Positions 29,488 through 51,179 of a stretch of 64,000 bases of DNA are shown here, in pieces. Source of the stretch: Candidatus Helarchaeota archaeon (lineage in GTDB: Archaea > Asgardarchaeota > Lokiarchaeia > Helarchaeales > RDOG01); NCBI GenBank assembly GCA_019058315.1, contig JAHPZH010000002.1:877910-941909 (forward strand), in the 5' to 3' direction. Below the pieces are notes generated by a model. It was not told where the DNA came from. It made no database searches and was given only the letters and a program-made list of their open reading frames with translations. The stretch's first letter is position 1. Every line of letters begins with the position of its first letter. A program made the position numbers and the translations under genes.

Positions 29488-32460
29488 ATGAAATACAAAA
29501 AACAGATTGAATTTATGAGGATAGCAATTGAAGAATCAGAAAAATCTACTACAGAAAGAGGGAAAAAAATTTCTCCTAAAGTTGGAGCTGTATTAGTAAA
29601 GAATGGAAAAGTTTTAGAAAAGGCATTTAGAGGAGAATCTGCTGAAGGAGAACATGCAGAATATACACTACTTGAATTAAAATGTAGCGGAAAAAACTTA
29701 AAAGATACAATATTATTTGTAACCCTTGAACCATGTACAAGACGAAATCCACCGAAAAGACCATGTGTGGAATGGATTAGAAAAAAAGGAATAAAAGAAG
29801 TCATTATTGGAACGATTGATCCAAATCCTTTAATATCCGGAAGAGGTTATTTGAAACTCAGAGAATTAGGGATAAACGTTGAATTTTCTCCTTCTCAAAT
29901 TCGTAATGAAATTGAATCTTTAAATAAAGATTTTAGAGACAGTTTTATAAGACCAAGTTTTGCAACGGCCAATCAATTAAATGAGAAGGGGGGAATATGG
30001 ACTTTAATTGATAGTTTAATAACAAAAAGAGATGACAAAAAGATTTATTGGTATTGCGGGCAATCAGGTATTGGTAAAACTGCTTTACTCCGGTGGGTTA
30101 GGGAAGTTTTAAAAGATGGTGGAGAAATTGAATATGATTATATAACTTTAGGAAACAATGAGGTCATATTTCCGCTTATGGATCTTGTAAACGGCAATAT
30201 ATCAGACTTAGATGTAATAAAAGCGAATAATGGGAATATTATTGAATATGTCTGCAATAAAATTGTTAATTATTTAAGAAAGAAATCAAAACCAAAAATC
30301 ATCATTTTAGATACAGATTATCAATTTAATGATTATGATGGGTTAAGCAAAACATTAAGTGTACTAAAATTGAAAATCGAAACTTTTCCTCAATATGGAA
30401 TAATTGTAGCAACTAAAAAATGTCCAAAAAATCATTCTTATTCAAAAATGGAACCATTAAGTGAAGAGGAAATTGAAGAAATGTATAAAATTAAGGGTTG
30501 GGAATATGATTCAAATACAATTAAGAATTCTTATAAAATTACAAAAGGAAATCCGTTATTTGTTGTTTTATATAATGCATTGGTAAAAATTGAAAATAAT
30601 ATTAGATCAAATAATCCTAATAATCTTCAAGACATAATCTATAAAATCTTTGAATGTCTACCAAATGAAGCACAAGCAATTATTAAAAACATAGTTTTAA
30701 GTCTGAAGGCCCCCTATGAATTAGAAAAATTGACAAAAAAAGAATTAATACTTCCCGAAACGGAAGAAGCTGAAAAATGGTTCGATTTTTTAGTAAAATA
30801 TGGCATAATTCAATCAAATAGTCCTAAAATCTCAATACATGATGATATAATTGAATCTTTTGAAGATTTAATTTCTGATGATGAAAAAAATAAAATTCAT
30901 AACTTATTAGGAAATCGTTTAATCAAATCAGATCCAATTAGTTCATTATGGCATTTCGTGAGAGCAGACAATTATCAAAAAGCGTTTGACATTATTGTAA
31001 CAAACCCAATTTTAACAATTAAAAATTTAGAAGTTCTCAAATTTATTAAAATTTACTCAGAAACTGCAAAATACTTTGAAAATTTAACTAAAGACGAAAA
31101 AAATAAAGAAATTAAACCAGATTTACTTTATTATATGGGGTTAATCTTTTTTCAACTTGCAGAATTCGTAGACAAAAGTAAGAATCTTACAAAAACTAGA
31201 GAATTAAATGAATTATTAATCATAAATTACAATTTTGAGAATCAGCCTGAAATTTATGGACACATTTATAATAATTTGGGAGCGATTTATGGTAATATGG
31301 CGGAAAATGCGATCGATAAAAAAGTAATTGCTGAAAAAGCATTAAATTATCTTGAAAATGCATTGAATTATAGAGAATCGGATAAAAGCTCAATACATTA
31401 TGGAGAGACACAAAATAATCTAGGGGCTGTTTACCGAATTTTAGCTGAAACTAAAATGAATGTAAATTATGGAAATAAAGCTATTGAATCTTATAAAAAA
31501 GCACTTAAAATTTATACTTTAGAAAAATTTCCTCAATTTTATGGAAGAACTCAAAGTAATTTGGCACATGCCTATGTGACGCTTGCTGATATTGAAAATA
31601 AAAAACAAAATAGTTTAAATGCAATTGAAGCCGGTTTTGCTGCATTAAAGGTTTTTTCATTAGAAAGATATTCGATCTTATTTGCAGGAGCTAAAAATAA
31701 TTTAGGAATTGCTTATCGCACACTTGCGGAAGTTGAAAATATTACGGAAAATTGTAAAAAAGCAATTGAAGCATATAAAGATGCACTTCAAGTTTATAGC
31801 TTTGAAAATTTTCCATTAGATTATGCAATGGTTCAATCAAATCTTGCTGGAGCTTATAGTACACTTGCTTTAGAAGAAAATATAAAAGAAAACTACTCAA
31901 AGTCAACTAAAGCCTATGAAAACGCACTAAAGGTTTATACAGTTGAAAAATATCCCATATTATTTGCAAAGACCGAATATAACATTGGATATTTTTTTTA
32001 TGAACTAGGAATGAAATTAAATAATGCAAATTTTTTAAAGAAATCCATTGATTTTTATAAAAAATCTGCAAAATACAGGAACTTCGAAAATTTCCCTGCT
32101 GAATATGCATCAACTCAAAATAATCTTGGATTAGTTTATTTAATCCTTGCTAATAGTCGAGATAAAGAAGAAAATTGTAAAAAAGCAATAAATTCTTATG
32201 AAGAGGCTCTGAAATTTTATAAATTAAATAGATTTCCAGATAAATTTGGCTCAATTAATAATAATATTGGAATAAGCTGTCTTATATTAATAGAATTAAG
32301 TAAATCTGAAAAATATTGTAAAAAAGGAATGAAAGCTTTTAATTTTGCACTTGAATTTTATAAAAAAGAGTTATATCCTGAGCAATATGAGGGTATAATA
32401 AAAAACCTAAAAAAAATTGAAAGATTGTGTGGTAAAAATAAACTTGTTAATGAAACATAA
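29488..32460 (+). CDS. Deaminase - P-loop (STAND-like) NTPase - TPR protein
   Basis: RibD/CDA-type deaminase (PKVGAV, HAE, TLEPC-x8-PC), Walker A GQSGIGKT, KGNPLF (GxP) and multiple TQNNLG TPR repeats. Confidence 0.85.
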   Translation: MKYKKQIEFMRIAIEESEKSTTERGKKISPKVGAVLVKNGKVLEKAFRGESAEGEHAEYTLLELKCSGKNLKDTILFVTLEPCTRRNPPKRPCVEWIRKKGIKEVIIGTIDPNPLISGRGYLKLRELGINVEFSPSQIRNEIESLNKDFRDSFIRPSFATANQLNEKGGIWTLIDSLITKRDDKKIYWYCGQSGIGKTALLRWVREVLKDGGEIEYDYITLGNNEVIFPLMDLVNGNISDLDVIKANNGNIIEYVCNKIVNYLRKKSKPKIIILDTDYQFNDYDGLSKTLSVLKLKIETFPQYGIIVATKKCPKNHSYSKMEPLSEEEIEEMYKIKGWEYDSNTIKNSYKITKGNPLFVVLYNALVKIENNIRSNNPNNLQDIIYKIFECLPNEAQAIIKNIVLSLKAPYELEKLTKKELILPETEEAEKWFDFLVKYGIIQSNSPKISIHDDIIESFEDLISDDEKNKIHNLLGNRLIKSDPISSLWHFVRADNYQKAFDIIVTNPILTIKNLEVLKFIKIYSETAKYFENLTKDEKNKEIKPDLLYYMGLIFFQLAEFVDKSKNLTKTRELNELLIINYNFENQPEIYGHIYNNLGAIYGNMAENAIDKKVIAEKALNYLENALNYRESDKSSIHYGETQNNLGAVYRILAETKMNVNYGNKAIESYKKALKIYTLEKFPQFYGRTQSNLAHAYVTLADIENKKQNSLNAIEAGFAALKVFSLERYSILFAGAKNNLGIAYRTLAEVENITENCKKAIEAYKDALQVYSFENFPLDYAMVQSNLAGAYSTLALEENIKENYSKSTKAYENALKVYTVEKYPILFAKTEYNIGYFFYELGMKLNNANFLKKSIDFYKKSAKYRNFENFPAEYASTQNNLGLVYLILANSRDKEENCKKAINSYEEALKFYKLNRFPDKFGSINNNIGISCLILIELSKSEKYCKKGMKAFNFALEFYKKELYPEQYEGIIKNLKKIERLCGKNKLVNET

Positions 32461-39051: not shown

Positions 39052-42000
39052 TTGAATATTTGTGTGATAATTATGGAAAAAACAACAAGATATTGGAAAA
39101 ACAGATATAAAGTTATCAAAGAAATAAAAATTTCGGGATCTATTCCTTTTAATGAAAAAATTGAAATTCGGCAATTTATATGTGAAGATCTACTATTAAA
39201 ACAAGAAGTTATACTTAAAAAAATTAAAATAAATGAAAACGAAGAACTTAAGGAATTAGCAAGATTCTTATGGCATTATGAAATGTCATTGAATCAAAAG
39301 GCCATAAATAATTCAGATGGCAAAACATTATTGAAATTAATAGATTCGCAATATGATCCTATAGAAAATTATTTCATTATCGTAACTGATTTTGGGGGGA
39401 TTTCTTTGAAGGAATGTTTAACTCAAACCGAACAAACTGATGATAGCATATCTTTTCAAAATTTTTTATCAGGAAAGAAAAGAAAATGGGATTCGATCCT
39501 TAAGTTAGTAGAAGGCTTATCATCATTACATAATTCTGGATTAATTCACCGAAATATATCTTTAGAAACAATTTACTTTAATAGTAATTCTTATAGAGAA
39601 GGGGAAAAGGAAGTATTAAAAATTGGGGATTTTAATTGGAGTATTTATTTGTATTCAATTGCAAATATATTCTCTAATAAGTTTTCAATTGAAATAATCC
39701 AATGTAAAAATGATTTCTTTCGAGCACCTGAATGTAATACTGATATTGTATTAAAAAATCCAGTACCTCGTGGTGAAAATAATCAATCAGATCTTTTTTC
39801 GCTGGGACTTGTTTTAGCTTTTTTATTAACTGATTTGGACATAAACAAATACAAAATATCTGAAAATTCAGACAAAATTCAAATTCTTTTAGAGATTCGA
39901 GATTATATTAAGAATTATAAAAGATTTTTAGAACAAGAGAGAGAAATAATATTAAAATTGATCGAAATAGAACCGGAGAAAAGGTTCTTAAATGCTGAGA
40001 AATTAAAAGAGAATATTAAAAACTTTTTAAGAGAATTAAAATACAAATTTAGCTACTATAAAGAATTACCTATATACTTTCCCTTAAGTAGACAGAGTAG
40101 ATTATTAGAAATAATTTCAAATAGAATGAATATAGGTATTGATGCTATTATTCGGGATCCAGATGAATTTTTAAGAATTGAATTTTCTAATACAACATTT
40201 TACTTATCAAAAGATCAACAATTTCCATTATGGGTCAAAGGAAAAACTGGAACTGTATATAAAATTAGGAGTATTTATAGAAGACCCAAATTAGCAGAAC
40301 TTTTCATAGTAAGATGGAAAGAATATGATTTTGAAAAAACAGACATTCAAATATGCAATACAAAAAATCTTTTTTGGAGAGATAAAGATAGTAATGATCC
40401 AATCTATTTAGGTTGGGAAAAAATATTCGCAACATCCTTGGATCTAATTAACGAGAAAGTTGCGGAATTATCTGAGGGGGATAAAGATAAAGAAAGATGG
40501 CTCGAAACTATAGAAATTGTCACTGATGCTGAAATAGATTTAGAAGAGAAAAAAATATTTGATTATCAATTAATCAGTTCAGAGCAGGAAAAAAAGTTAG
40601 AAGAAGAATACAAAATAAAAATTGCTATTTCAAATTTAGCTGATGAGGAATTATTTTCTGATCCGAGTGGAGATTTCAGAGGAACTAGCTTGGAATTAGT
40701 TTTAGAAAGAAATATTTTTGAACCATTTAAAGAAAAGAGAAAATGGAAAATAAGTAGTAGTGAATATGATGAAAATATAGATACAACAGTTTTTACATTG
40801 GTTAGAACAAAAAAGGGGGAAGATCCTCCATTAAATGGATTTATAAGAATGTGGGAATTAAAAAATACAGCTCCACTTCTTAGAAGAAAATATGGAATTA
40901 TTCAAAATTTAGAAAAACACGAATTACTTTTAAATTCGATTTTAAAACCAGCCTCAACTCATAAATACTTCGAAAGGGATATTATTAAAAAAGAAATCGT
41001 AACGGATATATTCAATACATTTCCGATTTTTTTATTACAAGGTCCTCCTGGCACAGGAAAAACTTGGACTGCAAAAGAATTAATAAAAGTAACTTTAGAA
41101 AATGATCCTTATGCTAAAATTCTTGTTACAAGTAAAGAGCATTTCCCACTGGATGATTTATTGACAAAAACATTAAAAATGATTCAAGATCTAGAAATAA
41201 AACCCAAACCAATGCTAATCAGGCTTATTTCAACTGAACGAGAGCAATTTTATGATCCAAAATCATTAATTTTTTTACATTTTAATAAAATAATTGCTAA
41301 AAATCTTCTAGAAAAACTTATAAAATGGGTTCCCAAAAATCCCAAGTTAAATGAGTTAGGAAAAGAATTAAATAAAATTGCTAGGGAAGATTTTGAATCG
41401 CCCAGTAGAGAATGGATAGAATTAGTAAAACAGAGTTCTAATATCCTCTTTTGTACTACCACTGCTCGAGAACTTCAAGAACTCGAATATTTTCATCCTT
41501 CATTTGATTTGGTAATTATTGAGGAATCTGGAAAGGCATATCCATCAGAATTATTATTTCCATTACAATTGGGAAATAAATGGGTTTTGATTGGAGATCA
41601 AAATCAATTACCTCCTTTTAGAGTTGATGATATAAACGAAATTCTTGAAGAGCGATTGGAAAAAAAGGAAAATGAGGTAAAAGGTTTACCTAATTATAGT
41701 TCTCAAGATTTTCTCGAATTTAAACAAGATGTTAAAAAAGAAATGAAGATTTTTCAATCTATGTTTGACCGATTTCAGAAGGTTAATCATTCCTTTAATA
41801 AAGCTGATCAAATAAAGTCTTGTGATACACTAATAAATCAATATCGCTTACCTTCAAAAATAAGTAGAATGATTTCTACAATTTTTTATAATAAAGAATT
41901 TATTCAGAAAATCAAAGATCCAGAACTAGGAAGTTTCATTATTGAACCCGAAATTTTAAAAGATGAACAATTGATATGGATTAATACATCTTATAAAAAA

Positions 42001-42495
42001 GAATATAAAGAGCAAAGAAGCGGTTATGATATATATAATATTGGAGAGGCACTTTTAATTAAAGATTTATTAACAAAAATACAAATATCGGAAAATAATG
42101 GGAATTTTTCAATTGCGATATTGACTCCCTATAAAGAACAACTTCAAACCCTCATCAAAACACTTCCAAATCAATTAAATAATCTGAAAAATATTAAAAT
42201 TCGTGAAAGTTGTTATACTATCGATAGCTTTCAAGGTCGAGAAGCAGATTTAGTAATTATATCTTTAGTTAGGAATAATCGAAAAGAAAGTTCTAGACGC
42301 GCTTGGGGTTTTATACCTGGACCAGAGAGATTAAATGTGATGCTTTCAAGGGCAAGAAGAACTGAAATTATTGTTGGAAATTTCGATATGTGCCGAACTT
42401 TCCACCGAGATGACTATATGACGAAATTTAATAAAGTAGCAAAATTTGTAAAAAATTATGGTAAATTGTTAACTCCAAAGGAGGTGCTAGAATAA
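39052..42495 (+). CDS. Kinase-like domain + SF1 (Upf1/DNA2-like) helicase; Mokosh type I MkoA-like
   Basis: Kinase motifs HRNIS, IGDF, RAPE, SDLFSLG; helicase motifs QGPPGTGKT, IIEESG, IGDQNQLPP, QYR, TIDSFQGRE, RLNVMLSRAR. Confidence 0.8.
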   Translation: MNICVIIMEKTTRYWKNRYKVIKEIKISGSIPFNEKIEIRQFICEDLLLKQEVILKKIKINENEELKELARFLWHYEMSLNQKAINNSDGKTLLKLIDSQYDPIENYFIIVTDFGGISLKECLTQTEQTDDSISFQNFLSGKKRKWDSILKLVEGLSSLHNSGLIHRNISLETIYFNSNSYREGEKEVLKIGDFNWSIYLYSIANIFSNKFSIEIIQCKNDFFRAPECNTDIVLKNPVPRGENNQSDLFSLGLVLAFLLTDLDINKYKISENSDKIQILLEIRDYIKNYKRFLEQEREIILKLIEIEPEKRFLNAEKLKENIKNFLRELKYKFSYYKELPIYFPLSRQSRLLEIISNRMNIGIDAIIRDPDEFLRIEFSNTTFYLSKDQQFPLWVKGKTGTVYKIRSIYRRPKLAELFIVRWKEYDFEKTDIQICNTKNLFWRDKDSNDPIYLGWEKIFATSLDLINEKVAELSEGDKDKERWLETIEIVTDAEIDLEEKKIFDYQLISSEQEKKLEEEYKIKIAISNLADEELFSDPSGDFRGTSLELVLERNIFEPFKEKRKWKISSSEYDENIDTTVFTLVRTKKGEDPPLNGFIRMWELKNTAPLLRRKYGIIQNLEKHELLLNSILKPASTHKYFERDIIKKEIVTDIFNTFPIFLLQGPPGTGKTWTAKELIKVTLENDPYAKILVTSKEHFPLDDLLTKTLKMIQDLEIKPKPMLIRLISTEREQFYDPKSLIFLHFNKIIAKNLLEKLIKWVPKNPKLNELGKELNKIAREDFESPSREWIELVKQSSNILFCTTTARELQELEYFHPSFDLVIIEESGKAYPSELLFPLQLGNKWVLIGDQNQLPPFRVDDINEILEERLEKKENEVKGLPNYSSQDFLEFKQDVKKEMKIFQSMFDRFQKVNHSFNKADQIKSCDTLINQYRLPSKISRMISTIFYNKEFIQKIKDPELGSFIIEPEILKDEQLIWINTSYKKEYKEQRSGYDIYNIGEALLIKDLLTKIQISENNGNFSIAILTPYKEQLQTLIKTLPNQLNNLKNIKIRESCYTIDSFQGREADLVIISLVRNNRKESSRRAWGFIPGPERLNVMLSRARRTEIIVGNFDMCRTFHRDDYMTKFNKVAKFVKNYGKLLTPKEVLE

Positions 42496-42496
42496 A

Positions 42497-44596
42497 ATGT
42501 TTCAAATTAATGAGGAAGGATATAAAAAAGATTTTCTCACTATACCAATCGAAATGATTAAATGTGAGATACATATTAAAAAACTGGCAAAACTAACTAC
42601 ATTTGAGAAACTAACTTTAAAATTTATTTATGAAGAAAATTCTCTTCAAGAATTACTAAATGCATTTAATGCTGGAACTCACATTATGAATTTCATTATT
42701 GCAAAACTTTTTTATCAAGGATTAATTAGGCTCAAATTAAATGAAGGTATCGTTGAATTAAGTGATAAAATTATTGATTATGTAAAAAACAATAAGTTAG
42801 ATGAATACTCAGAGGAAGAGAAATCTTATAAAAAAAGAAATTTTACGTTTATCCAGGAAAAAATAAGTGGCGAGCTATTTTTAGAAAATCGTGTAAAAGA
42901 ATATTTAATAAAACCACATTCCCCAAAGGATACCAATTATTATGATGTTAAAGCCAACATATATGGTAGTTTTCCAAATCTAAGAGATTTCTCAATAACA
43001 AAATTTGCAAAACGGGCAATTGTGGAATTAAAATCAGACATAGAAGATATAGAAAAAATTGAATTTATTAAAAATTTAAACCTTAATAAATTTTATATTC
43101 CCCTTGTCGATAAGACCAATAAAAAATTATTAAAATTGGATTATGATTTTTTTCCAAGCCATATTCAAAAAGCTTGGCAAAATGCCTTTGAATCTCAGCA
43201 TTTTAAAAGTGGAGAAGAACAAATAAATTTAGAGCTATTAAAAGATGAAACTAAGTTCTTCTCCATTAAGACCATTAAAGAGGAACTCTTTAAAGCTTTA
43301 GATTCTTTAAAAGAGCTATTTATAAGAATTAATGTTAAACAAGATAAAACTGAATTATTATTTCAGTCTGATATTATTTTAGATAAGATTTCAAATTTAA
43401 TAGAGAAAACTATTGAATTGACTAAAAGTATAAACCAAATTCAATTTAATTATGAAAAATCTAATATCTTCATTGAAAATTTTAAATCTTTTATAATTAA
43501 AGCCAAAAAACTTGTTATCATATCTTCTACTGAAATTAATGTGAGCAGTATTCCTATCTTAAGTTCTGTTATAAATGATCTTATTAAGAATAAAGTGCAT
43601 GTAATTCTTCAATGGGGATTGTTAGAAAATCAAAGATATCCTGATTTAGCACGTAAATTAGAGATATTTGAAAAAGAAATAAGAAAGATGATAGATAATG
43701 ACTTTCAAAAATATCTTCATATCTATCATACTACTACCAGAACTAATTCAAATTATATTTTAATTGATTATGATAAATTAATCTACTCTAATTTTTCATT
43801 TCTTAATTGGAATAAAGCACTTGACACAATTATTACATTTGTAGAAATTGAAGGTGGTGAAATGCCTTTAAATTTTTTAGAATTTAGTATTGATTACTCA
43901 CCCCCTGAATTTACACAAAGGTCTTTTTTAAATAAACTTCTTTTAGAGGGAAATGCATCTCTTTTAAAGAAATTATCTAGCCAAAGACAGAAGTTCATTC
44001 TAAATCTAAAAGAAAAATTCGAAAAATTAAAGAACCTTATTGAAAGCGGCAGTTTTAATAATGAAGAAAATGAAATTAATAATTTAAAATCAATTATTGG
44101 ATCAGGAATTAACTTTGATAGTGTTTCAAAAATAATAGATTTAGAACACGAAGAAATTCTTATTGATATTATGGAATCAACAAAAAATTCTATCTTTCTA
44201 TATACGGATGAATTAAATATCCTTCCATTTGGTCCTCATTTTGAAGAAAACATAGAAAAGTTCACAAATAGTGAATTTAGTATTATTTTAAATAAATACT
44301 TTTTAAAATCTGAAAATGAAACAAAATGGGCAAAAGGAATTAAAAGAATTGAATATATCTCAAATAAATTTCCTCAATTAAAACTTATAGAATTAGAGCA
44401 AAATTTCAAACTAAATATAGTTTTAGTTGATAATGGTTTAATTTTTTATTCAAATTCTCGCATTTTAGCACCTAGAAGAAGGATTGATTATGATTTCAAT
44501 ACTAAGAATTTTGGTTTGATAATTGATTCTGCTAGTGTCAATAAAGAAATTCTAAAATGCTTAAATACATTTCATGTTTTAAATTCTAAAAAATAA
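42497..44596 (+). CDS. Probable degenerate PLD-fold partner; MkoB-like
   Basis: Starts 1 bp after the helicase stop. PLD-like strands (AKKLVIISS, HVILQWG, NYILIDY, NIVLVDN) are present but there is no intact HxK. Confidence 0.5.
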   Translation: MFQINEEGYKKDFLTIPIEMIKCEIHIKKLAKLTTFEKLTLKFIYEENSLQELLNAFNAGTHIMNFIIAKLFYQGLIRLKLNEGIVELSDKIIDYVKNNKLDEYSEEEKSYKKRNFTFIQEKISGELFLENRVKEYLIKPHSPKDTNYYDVKANIYGSFPNLRDFSITKFAKRAIVELKSDIEDIEKIEFIKNLNLNKFYIPLVDKTNKKLLKLDYDFFPSHIQKAWQNAFESQHFKSGEEQINLELLKDETKFFSIKTIKEELFKALDSLKELFIRINVKQDKTELLFQSDIILDKISNLIEKTIELTKSINQIQFNYEKSNIFIENFKSFIIKAKKLVIISSTEINVSSIPILSSVINDLIKNKVHVILQWGLLENQRYPDLARKLEIFEKEIRKMIDNDFQKYLHIYHTTTRTNSNYILIDYDKLIYSNFSFLNWNKALDTIITFVEIEGGEMPLNFLEFSIDYSPPEFTQRSFLNKLLLEGNASLLKKLSSQRQKFILNLKEKFEKLKNLIESGSFNNEENEINNLKSIIGSGINFDSVSKIIDLEHEEILIDIMESTKNSIFLYTDELNILPFGPHFEENIEKFTNSEFSIILNKYFLKSENETKWAKGIKRIEYISNKFPQLKLIELEQNFKLNIVLVDNGLIFYSNSRILAPRRRIDYDFNTKNFGLIIDSASVNKEILKCLNTFHVLNSKK

Positions 44597-44619: not shown

Positions 44620-47040
44620 TTGAAAATACAGAAGGATTATATTCTATTTTCAAATTTTATCAAAATAACGAATATTACTAATAAGCAAAATAATTTGGAT
44701 GGAGGAATAAAAATAAACTTAAAAAAAATTGAAATTAAGAATTTTATGGGCGTTCATGACGTAACCTTAGATAATTTAGGTATTTTTAATGTAATAATTG
44801 GAAAAAACAAAACAGGAAAATCATCTATCTTAAAATTATTAGCTAATTATAAAGTAAATGATAATTTTTGGGTGGCAAACAAAAAGTTTGCCTCTGAAAA
44901 AGGAGAAAATAAACCAATTGAATTATTAAAATTAATATGGGAATTAGATTCAGAAGATATAATACAACTTAAGAAAGTTTCTTCTAGTTTAAAAAATGCT
45001 AAACTTTCATCAACTAATCTAATTATGGTAACAGAACATAAACCCCTAAATAATCATTCTGCAAAATTTTATTCAGATCAAAATTTATCAAAACTTTCGT
45101 ATGAACTACCAAGTGTAGCTCAGACTATGTTCCAAAATACAATATTGGGGGGTAAAATTATAAATATGATTCCATGTGTAAGATATTTATCTACGGATTT
45201 TGAAAAACGAATTACAGAAATCGAATTGGTTAGTAATAAGCAAGATCCTGAATTTATTTTCTATACAAATCAAGATGTAATGGTTTTCGATCAAATATTT
45301 AATTGGATTGATATAAAAAACCGAAAAAGAGAAGAAATTCAAGAATTCATTAATATTATAAGGAAATTAATTAATGTTGATTTAGAAATTAATGAATTTG
45401 AAGCAGGAAACGATTTTCAACTCTCATTAGATTATGAAGAATTAGGTCTTAAATTTGAGAGAGCTTTCCGAACCGCTGGACATGCAACACAACAATTAGT
45501 TTTAATTTTATATTATTGTTTCTTTCAAAAAAATCATTTAATTCTTATTGATGAAATTGAAATAGGACTTCATCCAAGTCTTTTGAGGTATTTATATAAT
45601 GTACTTTATGAATTATCAGAAAGAAATAATAATCAATTAATTGTATCAACCCATTCGTCTGTCTTTCTTGATTTATGTCCAAATGTTTACTTATTAGAAA
45701 ATGCTGAAAATGGTTCAATCTCCTATAATCACTCGGACTTTATTACAATCAGAGCAATTGATGAATTAATAGACCCTGATCCTATTGATTCTGCATTTAT
45801 TTTATCAAGAGATGAATATTCACTATTAATACAATCAGGATTTGATGAATTAAATTTAAATATGATAAATAAAATCCATGATTATTTTAAGCCATTTGAA
45901 TTATTTTTAGAACACGAAGAAGGTCTTGATGAATATAAAAAGATATTAAAACTTGGAACTACTATAAAACATTATAATTCTCAACTTCTTCAAAATGTAC
46001 ATTTTTTAAGCTCTACCGTTGAAGAAATATCGCTAAATTATGATGATAAATTAAAAAATAAACTAAAGAAAATTGTAATTTGTCAAATAAACAAAATTAA
46101 GGTTGATAAAACATATAAGAATCGAGAGGAACAATTTAAGAATTTATGTAAAGAATGTTGGAACCCAAAATTCCAGAATATTTTAACATATTCTCCGATG
46201 AAAGCAGAGGAAAAAAGGATTGAGATAATTGAACATTTGAAAAAATTGAAGAAATATAATAAAATTAACAATATTAATCAAAATTCTATCATTATAGTCT
46301 TTCCCGAAAATAGCTTTCCTTATATTGCTTTAGAAAATCTCATTAAATTTGCCACAAATGAAAAAGTTATAATTGTTGGAGGAATGGAACATAAGAAAAT
46401 CGGTCAAATCAAGAAAATTTTTTCGAAATTACCTCATGAATATCAAAAAAGATTAATTATTCCAAATTATAATCAATATTTTAAAAAATTATTAAAAAAA
46501 ATAGGTAATAAAGATACTAATCCATTTGATCCTCTACAAGAACGAGATTTGGAAGTAATTACTAATTCTAAATTTTTAAATCAAGCTATAATTATAAATT
46601 CTGATAAAAGAATTTCATTTCAAATTAAGAATATTCCAGTATATTTCTTTAATAAAGAAAAAAATAGATATGATAAAGAAGGTATTCCTTCAATATTAAT
46701 ACCTCATTTTAAAAAATTTAAAACAGTAATTGGTAATTTAGCTATTCTAATATGTAAAGATTTTTTAGTTAATTATGAAATAATCCCTCAATGGATGGAA
46801 AAAAATGATATCAACATTATTATTATCCCTTCTTTTACTCAATTAGTAAAACCATTTCAAGATAAAATTGGAGAAATTATGAGAAATAAAAAAAATGAAG
46901 GAAAAATATTTGTATTCGCAAGTTTAGCCGAATATGGTGGATCTGGAGTCTATTGCTACAAAAAAAGGAAAGATTATGAACCTGGAAAAAAAGGAAATCT
47001 CGAACCTGGGGAAGAAAAATGCAAAGAATATATAATATAA
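44620..47040 (+). CDS. ABC/OLD-type ATPase fused to a nitrilase (CN-hydrolase)-like domain
   Basis: IGKNKTGKS, LIDEIEIGLHP and STHS; C-terminal VFPENS, QIKNIP, LICKDF (E-K-C triad) and YGGSGV. Confidence 0.75.
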   Translation: MKIQKDYILFSNFIKITNITNKQNNLDGGIKINLKKIEIKNFMGVHDVTLDNLGIFNVIIGKNKTGKSSILKLLANYKVNDNFWVANKKFASEKGENKPIELLKLIWELDSEDIIQLKKVSSSLKNAKLSSTNLIMVTEHKPLNNHSAKFYSDQNLSKLSYELPSVAQTMFQNTILGGKIINMIPCVRYLSTDFEKRITEIELVSNKQDPEFIFYTNQDVMVFDQIFNWIDIKNRKREEIQEFINIIRKLINVDLEINEFEAGNDFQLSLDYEELGLKFERAFRTAGHATQQLVLILYYCFFQKNHLILIDEIEIGLHPSLLRYLYNVLYELSERNNNQLIVSTHSSVFLDLCPNVYLLENAENGSISYNHSDFITIRAIDELIDPDPIDSAFILSRDEYSLLIQSGFDELNLNMINKIHDYFKPFELFLEHEEGLDEYKKILKLGTTIKHYNSQLLQNVHFLSSTVEEISLNYDDKLKNKLKKIVICQINKIKVDKTYKNREEQFKNLCKECWNPKFQNILTYSPMKAEEKRIEIIEHLKKLKKYNKINNINQNSIIIVFPENSFPYIALENLIKFATNEKVIIVGGMEHKKIGQIKKIFSKLPHEYQKRLIIPNYNQYFKKLLKKIGNKDTNPFDPLQERDLEVITNSKFLNQAIIINSDKRISFQIKNIPVYFFNKEKNRYDKEGIPSILIPHFKKFKTVIGNLAILICKDFLVNYEIIPQWMEKNDINIIIIPSFTQLVKPFQDKIGEIMRNKKNEGKIFVFASLAEYGGSGVYCYKKRKDYEPGKKGNLEPGEEKCKEYII

Positions 47041-47463: not shown

Positions 47464-48480
47464 GTGATTAAGTGGATGGGAATGGAACCTAAAATATTAC
47501 AGAAAATCGAGAAATATGGAAGATATTCGGAAACTTTTCCCCTTAAAAAAGGTCCGGTAGGACCAGTTGAAGTGAAAGGTGTAAGGGGACAACAAATAAA
47601 AATTTATCTGACTTCTGATGGAATAGAAATTTATGATAAGAATAATGTATTAGAAAAGAGTATTTTTTATGACGAAATTGACGCATGTATAAACCTTAAT
47701 GTTGCCGAGCATTTAAAGATTCCAAAGAGTACCTTGACTTTTTCTGCCTATAAAGTGGAAACAATTTTATTACATTATTCAAATAACAAAAAATTATATC
47801 TACTATTTTGGAGTACTATTGCTGGTTGGCAACCTAAGCGACATGCAAAAGTCTTTAATAAAATACAAGAACACATAAATCGTCCGAATATAAAGGACTT
47901 TTTGATTGCTCTAGCTCCAAAATATGACGATTTTAAAATCCCAATTTCTCGAATTCAAGAAGAGTATCCTCTTGATGTTAATGAGATCCGCCATATAGTT
48001 GAGGAAATTACGGATTCGAATTTTAAATTCAAACAATCCAAAGATTATATTCTAGTGAAACCCAAACCTAAAATCGAAGTTGAAAGAGTAAGTATAAATG
48101 GAGAAGAAAAATTTAATGTAGTAGATAAAATAGAAATACCTCTTGAATTTCATATAACAAACCGAGGCACTTATCCGGCAAGAATTTCTCTACATCTTGA
48201 TGCTGCAAATTTACCAACGGGAAAACCTCATCCTCCATTTGATATTAAGCCAGGAGAAACCGCAATAAAGACCTTTCATGTTTCCACATTTGTAAAAGAC
48301 AATGAATATACAATGAATTTATTGCTGTGTGATAACAACGATGATAATGTTGAAATTGAAGATTCGGGAGTTACTTTTACAATAAATAGAAAAACATCAA
48401 AGAAAATGAAATTAAAAAATATTCTAAAAGCAGCTCTTTATCAATCCGCAAATGTGTTAGGAATCGCAAGGAAAATATAA
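47464..48480 (+). CDS. Hypothetical protein with Ig-like C-terminal region
   Basis: 338-aa ORF with a beta-sandwich-like pattern (FHITNRG...IKPGET). Confidence 0.55.
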   Translation: MIKWMGMEPKILQKIEKYGRYSETFPLKKGPVGPVEVKGVRGQQIKIYLTSDGIEIYDKNNVLEKSIFYDEIDACINLNVAEHLKIPKSTLTFSAYKVETILLHYSNNKKLYLLFWSTIAGWQPKRHAKVFNKIQEHINRPNIKDFLIALAPKYDDFKIPISRIQEEYPLDVNEIRHIVEEITDSNFKFKQSKDYILVKPKPKIEVERVSINGEEKFNVVDKIEIPLEFHITNRGTYPARISLHLDAANLPTGKPHPPFDIKPGETAIKTFHVSTFVKDNEYTMNLLLCDNNDDNVEIEDSGVTFTINRKTSKKMKLKNILKAALYQSANVLGIARKI

Positions 48481-49066: not shown

Positions 49067-49705
49067 ATGAAAGAAAAACCATCTCTATTAATCATAGGAA
49101 ATTCAAATGTAGGGAAGAGTGCCACAACTAAACTACTTCTCCCGAATCCGAAGAAATTTAAGGGGAAAACGGGCAAATCTCCCGGGAGCACATTATTTAT
49201 TGAACCGATTACACAAGTTAACCTCCCCTATAAGATTATAGATTTGCCAGGCTTCGGATATATGCGCCATAAGGGTAGGAGAAGGGAAGACCATATTAAA
49301 AATTTAATCATTGTCCACATCGAAAAACACCACAAAGAGTATTTTTTTGGCATTGTGGTATTAAATATTCTCCGGATCGAACAGCAAATCACTAAATATT
49401 TCATTCAGGATAAAAATTCCATACCCTTAAATTTTGAACTACTCCAATTTCTAAAAGAATTTGATATTCCTTTTATTGTGTTACTGAATAAAATCGATAA
49501 AGTTTCAGAATTAGAAATGAGAAGGATTATTGCATTCTTTGTTGATGCAGCTCGAGAATACGGATTAAATCTAATTCATTTAGACAACTTTGATAAAACT
49601 AATGAAACCAAGATACCATATTTAGAATTTTCAGCACGAAAAAAAACAAATCTTGGAAAGTTAAAATCGATAATTCAGCATTATTTTAATTTATTTCCTA
49701 AATAA
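49067..49705 (+). CDS. engB: EngB/YihA GTP-binding protein
   Basis: GNSNVGKS, PGST, DLPGFG, NKID and FSA motifs. Confidence 0.8.
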   Translation: MKEKPSLLIIGNSNVGKSATTKLLLPNPKKFKGKTGKSPGSTLFIEPITQVNLPYKIIDLPGFGYMRHKGRRREDHIKNLIIVHIEKHHKEYFFGIVVLNILRIEQQITKYFIQDKNSIPLNFELLQFLKEFDIPFIVLLNKIDKVSELEMRRIIAFFVDAAREYGLNLIHLDNFDKTNETKIPYLEFSARKKTNLGKLKSIIQHYFNLFPK

Positions 49706-49898
49706 TATGAATGAAATTTATTCGATTAGAGCTATAAGAAATAATAAATCTAATTTTTCCATAAAAATTCATTCAAAACAAGCCTATATCTATGGATTTG
49801 GTATCTTCAAACATAGGGTGAATTTGGAAACATAAAAAAGAAGTTATTTTCAAATAATTTATTTACAAACATTATATACAAAAAAACGAGATAAAAAA

Positions 49899-51179
49899 AT
49901 GCAAAGAACCAAATTTATTTTATTAATATTTTCTCAAATACTCTTAGTATCTTCGGTGTTTTTTAGTGTTTTAGACGCCCCAAATCCTAGTTGCTTAATC
50001 TCAGCACCCAATTTAGCCGAAATCCCCAGAAATCTTGTAATCGCAACTCCCAGTTATGTAAATAGATGGTCGACTACATATTCCCCGGACAATATCGATA
50101 TTTCAGCAGATGGACGATATTTTGTAACAGGCGACTCAGCCCCCGCCCCTACTAATCTTACCTTTTACGATAGAAACGGTCCTAGGTGGGCCCACATTCC
50201 AGGGGATGCTATCCTTGATGTAGCAATTTCTGCAAATGGGCAATATATAGTAACTGGAACCCAGATAAAAAATGTAACTCTTTATAACCGAGCAGGATTT
50301 CGGGATGATTATATTCCTAGTGATGGTATTATATCAGTTGCAATATCAGCTGACGGGCTTTACTTCGTTGCTGGAGATATACCTGGTCGCGTTCTTATGT
50401 TTAATAGATCTAATCCTCAAGCTAATGGAATTAATAACATGTGGAATTATACTACTGGTGACGGTAGTATTGGCGCACTTGCTATTTCATCAGACGGTCA
50501 ATGCATTGCTGCTGGTGGCTGGAATCAAAATATAACTCTACTTAATCGAGATTCTACAGTAATTCAGGAAATCGAAACTGGAGCGGTTCGATCATTGGCG
50601 ATGTCCGCTGATGGGACTTATATTGTCTCCGGAAATTCAAGCGGTTATGTATCCTTATTTAACAACACGGGTAGTTTGTTAGTGGGCTATGATATGGGGG
50701 AAGAAGTTCGAGAAGCGGCAATTTCGGCAGATGGTCAATATTTCGCTGTAGGAGGAATTAATGACCATGTCATGATGTTTAGACGAAATGGATCAATAGT
50801 CTGGGATTACGATACTGGATTTAACGTTTATTCGGTCGCAATGTCAGCAAATGGGCAATATGTAGTTTCGGGTGATGGAAATTCCAACGTAACACTATTT
50901 AATCAAACTGGATTTATGTGGAACTATACAACTGGGGGTTCAGTTAATAGTGTAGCAATTTCGGCAGATGGGCAATATTTTGTAGCTGGATCAGGTGACA
51001 ATTACGCCTATCTGTTTAAAAATCCATTACCAAGTGACGAAGACCAGAATCAACTAATTCTACTACTATTGGCTCAAGCGGGAACTGGAGATCAGTCAAT
51101 ATTCATGTTTGCGATAATCGGAATCGGTGCAGTGTCAGCAGTGATAATAATAATTCTACTGGTTAAAAAACAAGAGTAA
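49899..51179 (+). CDS. WD40/beta-propeller cell-surface protein
   Basis: Signal-like N-terminus, repeated VAISADGQY units and a C-terminal TM anchor. Confidence 0.85.
   Translation: MQRTKFILLIFSQILLVSSVFFSVLDAPNPSCLISAPNLAEIPRNLVIATPSYVNRWSTTYSPDNIDISADGRYFVTGDSAPAPTNLTFYDRNGPRWAHIPGDAILDVAISANGQYIVTGTQIKNVTLYNRAGFRDDYIPSDGIISVAISADGLYFVAGDIPGRVLMFNRSNPQANGINNMWNYTTGDGSIGALAISSDGQCIAAGGWNQNITLLNRDSTVIQEIETGAVRSLAMSADGTYIVSGNSSGYVSLFNNTGSLLVGYDMGEEVREAAISADGQYFAVGGINDHVMMFRRNGSIVWDYDTGFNVYSVAMSANGQYVVSGDGNSNVTLFNQTGFMWNYTTGGSVNSVAISADGQYFVAGSGDNYAYLFKNPLPSDEDQNQLILLLLAQAGTGDQSIFMFAIIGIGAVSAVIIIILLVKKQE

Follow-up and report, generated by a model that had tools for sequence, protein, structure and literature searches.

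What does a single polypeptide do in which an ATP-binding cassette (ABC) ATPase of a type familiar from antiphage systems is joined to an apparent amidohydrolase? This question is raised by a gene at positions 44620-47040 of a 64,000-nucleotide (nt) stretch of the genome of a Candidatus Helarchaeota archaeon (GenBank assembly GCA_019058315.1, contig JAHPZH010000002.1, positions 877,910 to 941,909 of the forward strand), which is referred to below as the window. The N-terminal half of its 806-residue product is predicted to be an AAA_15/OLD-type ATPase and the C-terminal half a divergent member of the nitrilase superfamily. An initial annotation, made from the DNA letters, had proposed an undescribed one-gene defence system, possibly working with an upstream pair of helicase genes on the same strand. 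In our analysis, the architecture, the candidacy as a one-gene system and the defence context held up, whereas cooperation with the upstream pair did not. On the basis of sequence comparisons, structural models and analogy with known systems, we consider it reasonably probable that the protein is a stand-alone, ATP-gated amidohydrolase immune effector, and we treat it as a candidate for this role. The gene is delimited as follows:

44620..47040, plus strand: whole gene, 806 codons followed by a TAA stop (open reading frame (ORF) analysis; an identical protein is on record as P0005)

A predicted nitrilase-superfamily domain in the C-terminal half

The C-terminal half comprises a short conserved lead-in and a putative catalytic domain, which together are called the module below:

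45937..46053, plus strand: conserved lead-in of ~40 residues to the effector module, residues 440-478, with LGT and QN..FL motifs (sequence conservation)
46054..47037, plus strand: predicted nitrilase-superfamily (CN-hydrolase) domain, residues ~479-806 (AlphaFold2 (AF2), Foldseek, VIA-align and PADLOC RTasNitrilase)
46306..46308, plus strand: predicted catalytic Glu, E563, in an FPEN motif (invariant; aligned with the Glu of a canonical nitrilase and of vanin-1)
46627..46629, plus strand: predicted catalytic Lys, K670, in an FQIK motif at the end of the beta-hairpin after N654 (invariant; aligned with the Lys of YRK)
46678..46680, plus strand: E687, probable second Glu of the catalytic tetrad (invariant)
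46753..46755, plus strand: predicted nucleophile Cys, C712, in an ICKD motif (invariant; aligned with the canonical Cys and the vanin-1 nucleophile)

The fold of this half had been set beforehand as one of two tests that could refute the initial annotation, and a nitrilase fold was found. The AF2 model of residues 440-806 had a predicted local distance difference test score (pLDDT) of 89.7 and a predicted template modelling score (pTM) of 0.90. When it was searched with Foldseek, all top matches were nitrilase-superfamily enzymes (probability 1.0), and VIA-align superposed model residues 40-367 on formamidase AmiF, aliphatic amidase, nitrilases, beta-ureidopropionase, Nit2 and Lnt with Z 18-19 and a root-mean-square deviation of 2.7-3.0 A over ~215 residues. 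Two helical insertions, at residues ~502-550 and 594-649, are specific to the family. A homodimer prediction for the nitrilase module scored 0.20 against a mark of 0.42, which gives no verdict and was used neither way.

The Glu-Lys-Cys triad that had been suspected from the sequence was recovered by alignments. In an hhalign comparison with a canonical 273-residue nitrilase of the same genome, E563 fell in register with the Glu of its PE motif, K670 with the Lys of its YRK motif and C712 with its Cys. A profile search of Protein Data Bank (PDB) sequences with the module alignment gave a single match, pantetheinase/vanin (E 4e-4), and no DRT1 chain was matched in this search; in the vanin-1 profile alignment, E563 and C712 paired with the catalytic Glu and Cys. 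Nine positions are invariant in the 47-sequence module alignment (E563, E590, H591, N654, Q668, K670, E687, C712 and D714). Among them, E687 follows the Lys and precedes the Cys, as its counterpart does in nitrilases, although at a distance of 17 residues past the Lys instead of ~8, and its position and invariance suggest that it is probably the second Glu of the catalytic tetrad. Judged from these models and alignments, the C-terminal half qualifies as a true, although divergent, nitrilase-superfamily domain with an intact predicted Glu-Lys-Cys triad.

The lead-in is conserved as well. All 19 ATPase-bearing relatives have G446, which is nearly invariant over the whole module alignment too, T447 is nearly invariant among the same 19, and Q458 is invariant only in the six closest sequences. 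This segment is shared by relatives that carry leucine-rich repeats (LRR) only, as phmmer finds it in LRR fusions.

An AAA_15-type ATPase without a nuclease domain

The N-terminal half contains the following features:

44719..45663, plus strand: predicted AAA_15/OLD-type ABC ATPase domain, residues 34-348 (Pfam, PADLOC and PDB matches)
44800..44823, plus strand: Walker A/P-loop, G61-S68, GKNKTGKS (G61, N63, G66 and K67 invariant in the 19 ATPase-bearing relatives; codons checked)
45538..45555, plus strand: Walker B, L307-E312, LILIDE (D311 and E312 invariant in the 19 ATPase-bearing relatives)
45652-45654, plus strand: H-loop His345 (motif inspection)

Pfam AAA_15 matched residues 34-348 with E 8e-19 and 68.9 bits, above its cut-off of 32.1, and AAA_21 also matched this half (E 8e-17). 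The top PADLOC models were AbiLi (1e-22) and AriA (5e-22), followed by PDC-M38A, Old, NsnB, HEC-01A, PtuA (7.5e-13) and GajA, and the closest solved chains by sequence were the OLD-family nuclease 6p74 (E 5e-10) and then AriA of PARIS (E 2e-9). Walker A, a signature-like motif (G287..Q291), Walker B and the H-loop His345 are all intact, and all of them except the H-loop His are conserved among the 19 ATPase-bearing relatives. By these profile matches and motifs, we assign the N-terminal half to the AAA_15 ATPases (PF13175). No TOPRIM or other nuclease domain was detected after the ATPase in the Pfam and PADLOC scans, and the initial view of an OLD/AAA_15 ATPase lacking TOPRIM was thus borne out.

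Between Walker A and the signature motif, the ATPase domain has a helical insertion of ~155 residues (78-233). In the AF2 model of the full-length protein, the mean pLDDT was 69, and the insertion and the N-terminus were below 50; this model was not used for inter-domain geometry.

Probable kinship with nitrilases of defence systems

The initial annotation had pointed to the nitrilase-like domains fused to defence-associated reverse transcriptases (DRT), and a relationship of this kind is probable. The PADLOC RTasNitrilase model, built for nitrilases associated with reverse transcriptases (RT) in DRT systems, matched the module with E 3e-7, closer than the general model of Pfam. The same model matched an LRR paralogue (3e-7) and a relative with tetratricopeptide repeats (TPR) (5e-14), and did not match the canonical housekeeping nitrilase of the same genome. 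The nearest structures in the ESM Atlas were Asgard TPR/CN-hydrolase clusters, and those that followed included two bacterial clusters labelled 'RNA-directed DNA polymerase' (941 and 1020 residues), with template modelling (TM) scores by query of 0.58-0.60 over 255-262 residues. An ESM Atlas feature search additionally returned bacterial clusters of ~300 residues, which are a lead only. Taken from profile and structure comparisons, the module is therefore probably akin to the RT-associated defence nitrilases.

According to Mestre et al., the class 3 RT-linked hydrolases form a clade of their own, separate from metabolic nitrilases (PMC9226505). In DRT1, the nitrilase domain is the toxic effector and its catalytic residues are required for defence (PMC13275509, PMC9226505); it is active only as an oligomer and a closed lid restrains it, while its substrate has yet to be identified (PMC13275509). 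Nitrilases are uncommon in antiphage systems, and the published immune nitrilase effectors belong to reverse-transcriptase systems only, namely DRT1 and its relatives (PMC13275509).

A rare family of Asgard archaea

A phmmer search with residues 440-806 against 1.84 billion representative proteins retrieved only 72 clusters, and the module is rare and hardly found outside Promethearchaeota (Asgard). When species-representative genomes were scanned, 11 loci were obtained, ten of them in Promethearchaeota and one in a Desulfatiglandaceae bacterium. Within 400 genomes of the phylum, close matches (E <1e-60) occurred in ~12, the source genome included, and were absent from the one genome of the same taxonomic family. 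Weaker matches (~1e-18) were found in 147 of the 400 genomes, often several per genome, and correspond to proteins of 830-1290 residues that contain TPR or HEAT repeats and end in a CN_hydrolase domain.

Among 56 full-length relatives, 36 join the module to LRR repeats and 18 join it to AAA_15. Some combine both, and one has DUF4365 in addition. Most ATPase-bearing relatives have an N-terminal repeat or unknown region, which the 806-residue protein lacks. Only this protein and P0006 (909 residues, from an unrelated metagenome) start directly at the ATPase.

Several architectures in this wider group deserve separate mention. Another contig of the same genome encodes a 655-residue paralogue made of LRR repeats and the same nitrilase module (G000:C3:839972-840955; L003:985-2952:-). 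Proteins of ~1280 residues that combine TPR repeats with a CN_hydrolase domain at the C-terminus (e.g. L046:6462-10292, 35.7 bits, above the Pfam cut-off) are encoded by as many as six genes per genome in several Asgard genera, a large expansion that is undescribed as far as we found in the literature. Promethearchaeum syntrophicum encodes a protein of 950 residues in which HEAT repeats are combined with a nitrilase module at the C-terminus (L047:7755-10613).

Neighbourhoods of homologues and the case for an immune role

The ORFs within 7 kb of 16 homologues were scanned, with the source window left out. No neighbouring gene recurs in these 16 loci, and the one-gene reading of the initial annotation fits this absence of a conserved partner. 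At the loci whose flanks are informative, the neighbours include a TIR_2 protein, a SIR2_2 protein directly downstream of its homologue, two SLFN_AlbA_2 genes, a PDDEXK+DUF87 NTPase and a Zc3h12a-type RNase. The neighbours of homologue P0009 (L052:7877-14141) include another AAA_15/AAA_21 gene and a Pycsar-like pair of PycTM effector and PycC cyclase (E 3e-57; assigned to the scanned ORF set, not to a single ORF). Type I restriction-modification genes and PD-Lambda-3_A were also matched in the flanks. P0006 stands alone, flanked by genes on the opposite strand. The homologues lie in variable, defence-type neighbourhoods. At a PADLOC threshold of E 1e-8, the 131 flanking ORFs of the 16 loci matched 120 models, versus 40 for 134 ORFs of 10 arbitrary Asgard regions taken as a crude control; this contrast, which is indicative only, speaks against the second refuting condition of the initial annotation, a lack of enrichment of homologues in defence islands.

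Several points weigh against an immune effector with this architecture. First, the Pfam CN_hydrolase model (PF00795) matched the protein below threshold (E 0.014, 15.2 bits versus a cut-off of 23.2). It matched 21 of the 56 full-length relatives at E<=0.01 (best E 3e-6), and the paralogue of the same genome exceeds the cut-off (24.2 bits). The protein is thus a divergent member, and its assignment to the superfamily rests on fold and triad. Second, the ATPase part of the full-length AF2 model is of low confidence, and the coupling of the two domains is not readable from it. Third, the 806-residue copy has no recognisable sensor repeats. Fourth, the contrast in PADLOC matches between homologue loci and control regions is only suggestive, because it counts matched models rather than genes and its controls were hand-picked. 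Finally, the distant repeat-nitrilase genes of Asgard archaea are multi-copy, and three Promethearchaeum genomes (L047, L012-L014) share a gene order in which the HEAT-nitrilase gene is flanked by a ThiF-family gene and uvrC. Such a placement looks more like that of a housekeeping gene than that of an island gene, so the module does not have to be immune in every protein that carries it.

The protein could instead be a regulated amidase of cell physiology, outside immunity, with the ATPase as a chaperone-like regulator. It might then be a protein-modifying amidase like the N-terminal amidases, or a metabolite-salvage enzyme. Protein N-terminal amidases, biotinidase/vanin and Lnt all belong to the nitrilase superfamily, and vanin was the only PDB match found at the sequence level. 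The occurrence of repeat-nitrilase genes in over a third of the Asgard genomes, often in several copies, and the synteny of one repeat-nitrilase type beside a ThiF-family gene are likewise in its favour. We nevertheless regard a physiological amidase as rather improbable, since AAA_15/OLD/AriA-type ATPases are hardly known outside conflict systems, the close family has a patchy distribution (~12 of 400 genomes, and missing from the one genome of the same taxonomic family), the neighbourhoods are variable and rich in defence genes, and the DRT-associated model separates the module from the housekeeping nitrilase.

Proposed mode of action

If the protein is an immune effector, the OLD/AriA-like ATPase would be sensor and switch, and the covalently joined Cys-Glu-Lys amidohydrolase would be the effector. 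The ATPase head with its long helical insertion would detect an infection cue, and this cue would alter the nucleotide-dependent dimer or oligomer state of the ATPase. The change in assembly would bring the nitrilase domains into an oligomeric state with an open lid, as nitrilase catalysis needs, and the active nitrilase would then cleave a C-N bond of an essential metabolite or protein, so that the infected cell would stop growing. In the 806-residue copy, which lacks the N-terminal region of most ATPase-bearing relatives, sensing would have to rest on the ATPase itself. We infer the defence role, the trigger, the activation through oligomerisation, the abortive outcome and the substrate from the comparisons given here.

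Comparison with known systems

Like DRT1 and the other class 3 UG/Abi RT-nitrilases (UG1, UG5 and UG29), the Asgard protein is a single large chain with a C-terminal nitrilase, which is probably of the same defence-associated type and has its predicted catalytic Glu, Lys and Cys intact. In contrast to DRT1, it has no reverse transcriptase, alpha-repeat domain or protein-primed DNA, its regulator would be an ABC ATPase, and its nitrilase carries the two extra helical insertions. The DRT1 family is bacterial, whereas the ATPase-nitrilase family is archaeal (Asgard). No reverse transcriptase domain was matched by Pfam or PADLOC in the protein or its neighbours, and the protein is not a member of DRT1.

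It is well established that OLD/AriA-type ABC ATPases form head-to-head dimers on ATP and that they serve Gabija, PARIS and Septu as sensor-scaffolds (see also PMC11464382). With the OLD nucleases and GajA of Gabija, the Asgard protein shares a single chain with an N-terminal AAA_15 ATPase, a helical insertion in it and a C-terminal catalytic effector; however, this effector is a predicted nitrilase-fold amidohydrolase instead of a TOPRIM nuclease, and the GajB-like helicase partner of Gabija is not present. As it has no TOPRIM, the protein is not a member of OLD/Gabija. AriA of PARIS, AbiLi of AbiL and PtuA of Septu are among its best-scoring ATPase relatives in PADLOC. In those three systems, the ATPase is the sensor and the scaffold that restrains the effector, and the effectors (AriB, AbiLii and PtuB) are separate nucleases, whereas the Asgard effector is fused and would be an amidohydrolase. 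No adjacent gene for a partner nuclease of the AriB, AbiLii or PtuB type was found at this locus or at the homologue loci, and the system is not PARIS, AbiL or Septu. By analogy, the design would work like an OLD/GajA-type fusion with its effector swapped, or like DRT1 with its regulator swapped. If this is true, a second, independent regulator, an ABC ATPase, acts on the same kind of warhead, and the nitrilase is a portable immune effector. The Asgard protein would also be simpler than DRT1 for finding the nitrilase substrate, and its short, repeat-free form is a convenient minimal construct for biochemistry.

Further close counterparts are the LRR-(AAA_15)-, TPR- and HEAT-nitrilase proteins of Promethearchaeota, with which the protein shares the C-terminal module, the lead-in segment and the invariant residues; unlike them, the 806-residue copy and P0006 are the shortest forms and have neither repeats nor another N-terminal region ahead of the ATPase. 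Tentatively, and with somewhat less confidence than we place in an immune role as such, these proteins may be viewed as a family of NLR-like single-chain immune receptors built in Asgard archaea. An AAA_15 ABC ATPase would take the place of a STAND ATPase, with LRR, TPR or HEAT sensors in front and a DRT1-related nitrilase as the shared warhead, and the 806-residue gene would be the minimal, sensor-less form. The warhead would destroy or modify a metabolite or protein that bears an amide or amine and is essential to the cell, and immune chemistry of this kind has yet to be defined for any system. Asgard archaea are the closest prokaryotic relatives of eukaryotes. A family that is nearly confined to them and has an NLR-like order of LRR, ATPase and effector therefore bears on how the receptor architectures of innate immunity were assembled. 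The initial annotation had called the gene undescribed, and our literature search found no paper on a protein that joins a nitrilase to an ABC ATPase or to LRR.

The adjacent Mokosh genes

The upstream pair, with which cooperation had been proposed, turned out to be a type I Mokosh system:

39052-42495, plus strand: type I Mokosh MkoA, 1147-residue kinase-helicase (PADLOC MkoA E 1.9e-169)
42497-44596, plus strand: type I Mokosh MkoB, 699 residues (PADLOC MkoB E 5.7e-21)

The stop of the MkoB gene lies 23 nt upstream of the ATPase-nitrilase ORF. Given this short gap and the common strand, co-transcription with mkoAB is likely in this genome. Moreover, the MkoB of the window and its two closest Asgard homologues (L065:2324-4366:- and L061:8713-10770:-) no longer have either of the two HxK(x)4D motifs of the phospholipase D (PLD) fold, which are kept in three more distant Asgard MkoBs; judging from these motifs, they represent a type I Mokosh clade whose PLD is probably inactive. 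The ATPase-nitrilase could accordingly be imagined as a third, accessory Mokosh component that supplies the effector since the PLD of MkoB is dead.

The distribution of the genes argues otherwise. MkoB was searched in 400 Asgard genomes, and five further MkoA/MkoB loci were examined within their flanks: no ATPase-nitrilase homologue was present at any of the five, which comprise the two with an equally dead PLD and three others. Conversely, none of the 16 homologue loci contained MkoA or MkoB. A three-gene system was therefore rejected. The substitution of the nitrilase for the dead PLD was rejected as well, because the two relatives with the same defect do without the gene, which is thus not a regular replacement effector. 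Since it is not co-inherited with mkoAB, we regard the gene as no component of Mokosh, and an accessory role in that system as quite unlikely. With other Mokosh loci lacking the gene and homologue loci lacking Mokosh, their adjacency looks like a stacking of two systems in one island.

In the translation of MkoA, the catalytic loop of the kinase domain reads HRN instead of HRD, and DFN replaces DFG; MkoA of the window may thus be a pseudokinase. Its helicase part scores strongly (Pfam AAA_11/AAA_12).

Integrity of the gene

The missing N-terminal region and the degenerate catalytic motifs of the adjoining Mokosh proteins could also be taken to mean that the ATPase-nitrilase gene is a decaying or catalytically inert relic inside a defence island. 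We consider this very improbable. The frame stays open for 806 codons in DNA of ~25% G+C (~24-28% around the site), and all predicted catalytic residues of the ATPase and the nitrilase are kept. Moreover, P0006 has the same short architecture, and both ends of the 806-residue protein align with full-length relatives. The start codon is uncertain, being either the TTG at 44620 or an in-frame TTG at 44695; the first ATG is at 44746, and a start there would remove part of the first ATPase strand.

Other genes of the window

The window is a defence island. Further upstream of the Mokosh genes are a deaminase-NTPase-TPR protein, a DNA methylase, a PLD protein, a nucleotidyltransferase, and HEPN and HNH proteins. 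At 29488-32460, a 990-residue protein combines a cytidine/dCMP-type deaminase domain at the N-terminus with TPR repeats at the C-terminus, a layout similar to that of an Avs-like receptor whose effector is a deaminase.

Downstream of the ATPase-nitrilase gene by 424 nt, an ORF at 47464-48480 encodes 338 residues without a Pfam or PADLOC match, and no homologue of it was found near any relative of the ATPase-nitrilase gene; it was rejected as a partner gene on both grounds. An Rfam scan of the 64-kb window gave no match. At 49067-51179, a gene for a small Ras/MMR_HSR1-like GTPase is followed by one for a WD40 beta-propeller protein; both are eukaryote-like signature proteins and thus consistent with an Asgard genome.

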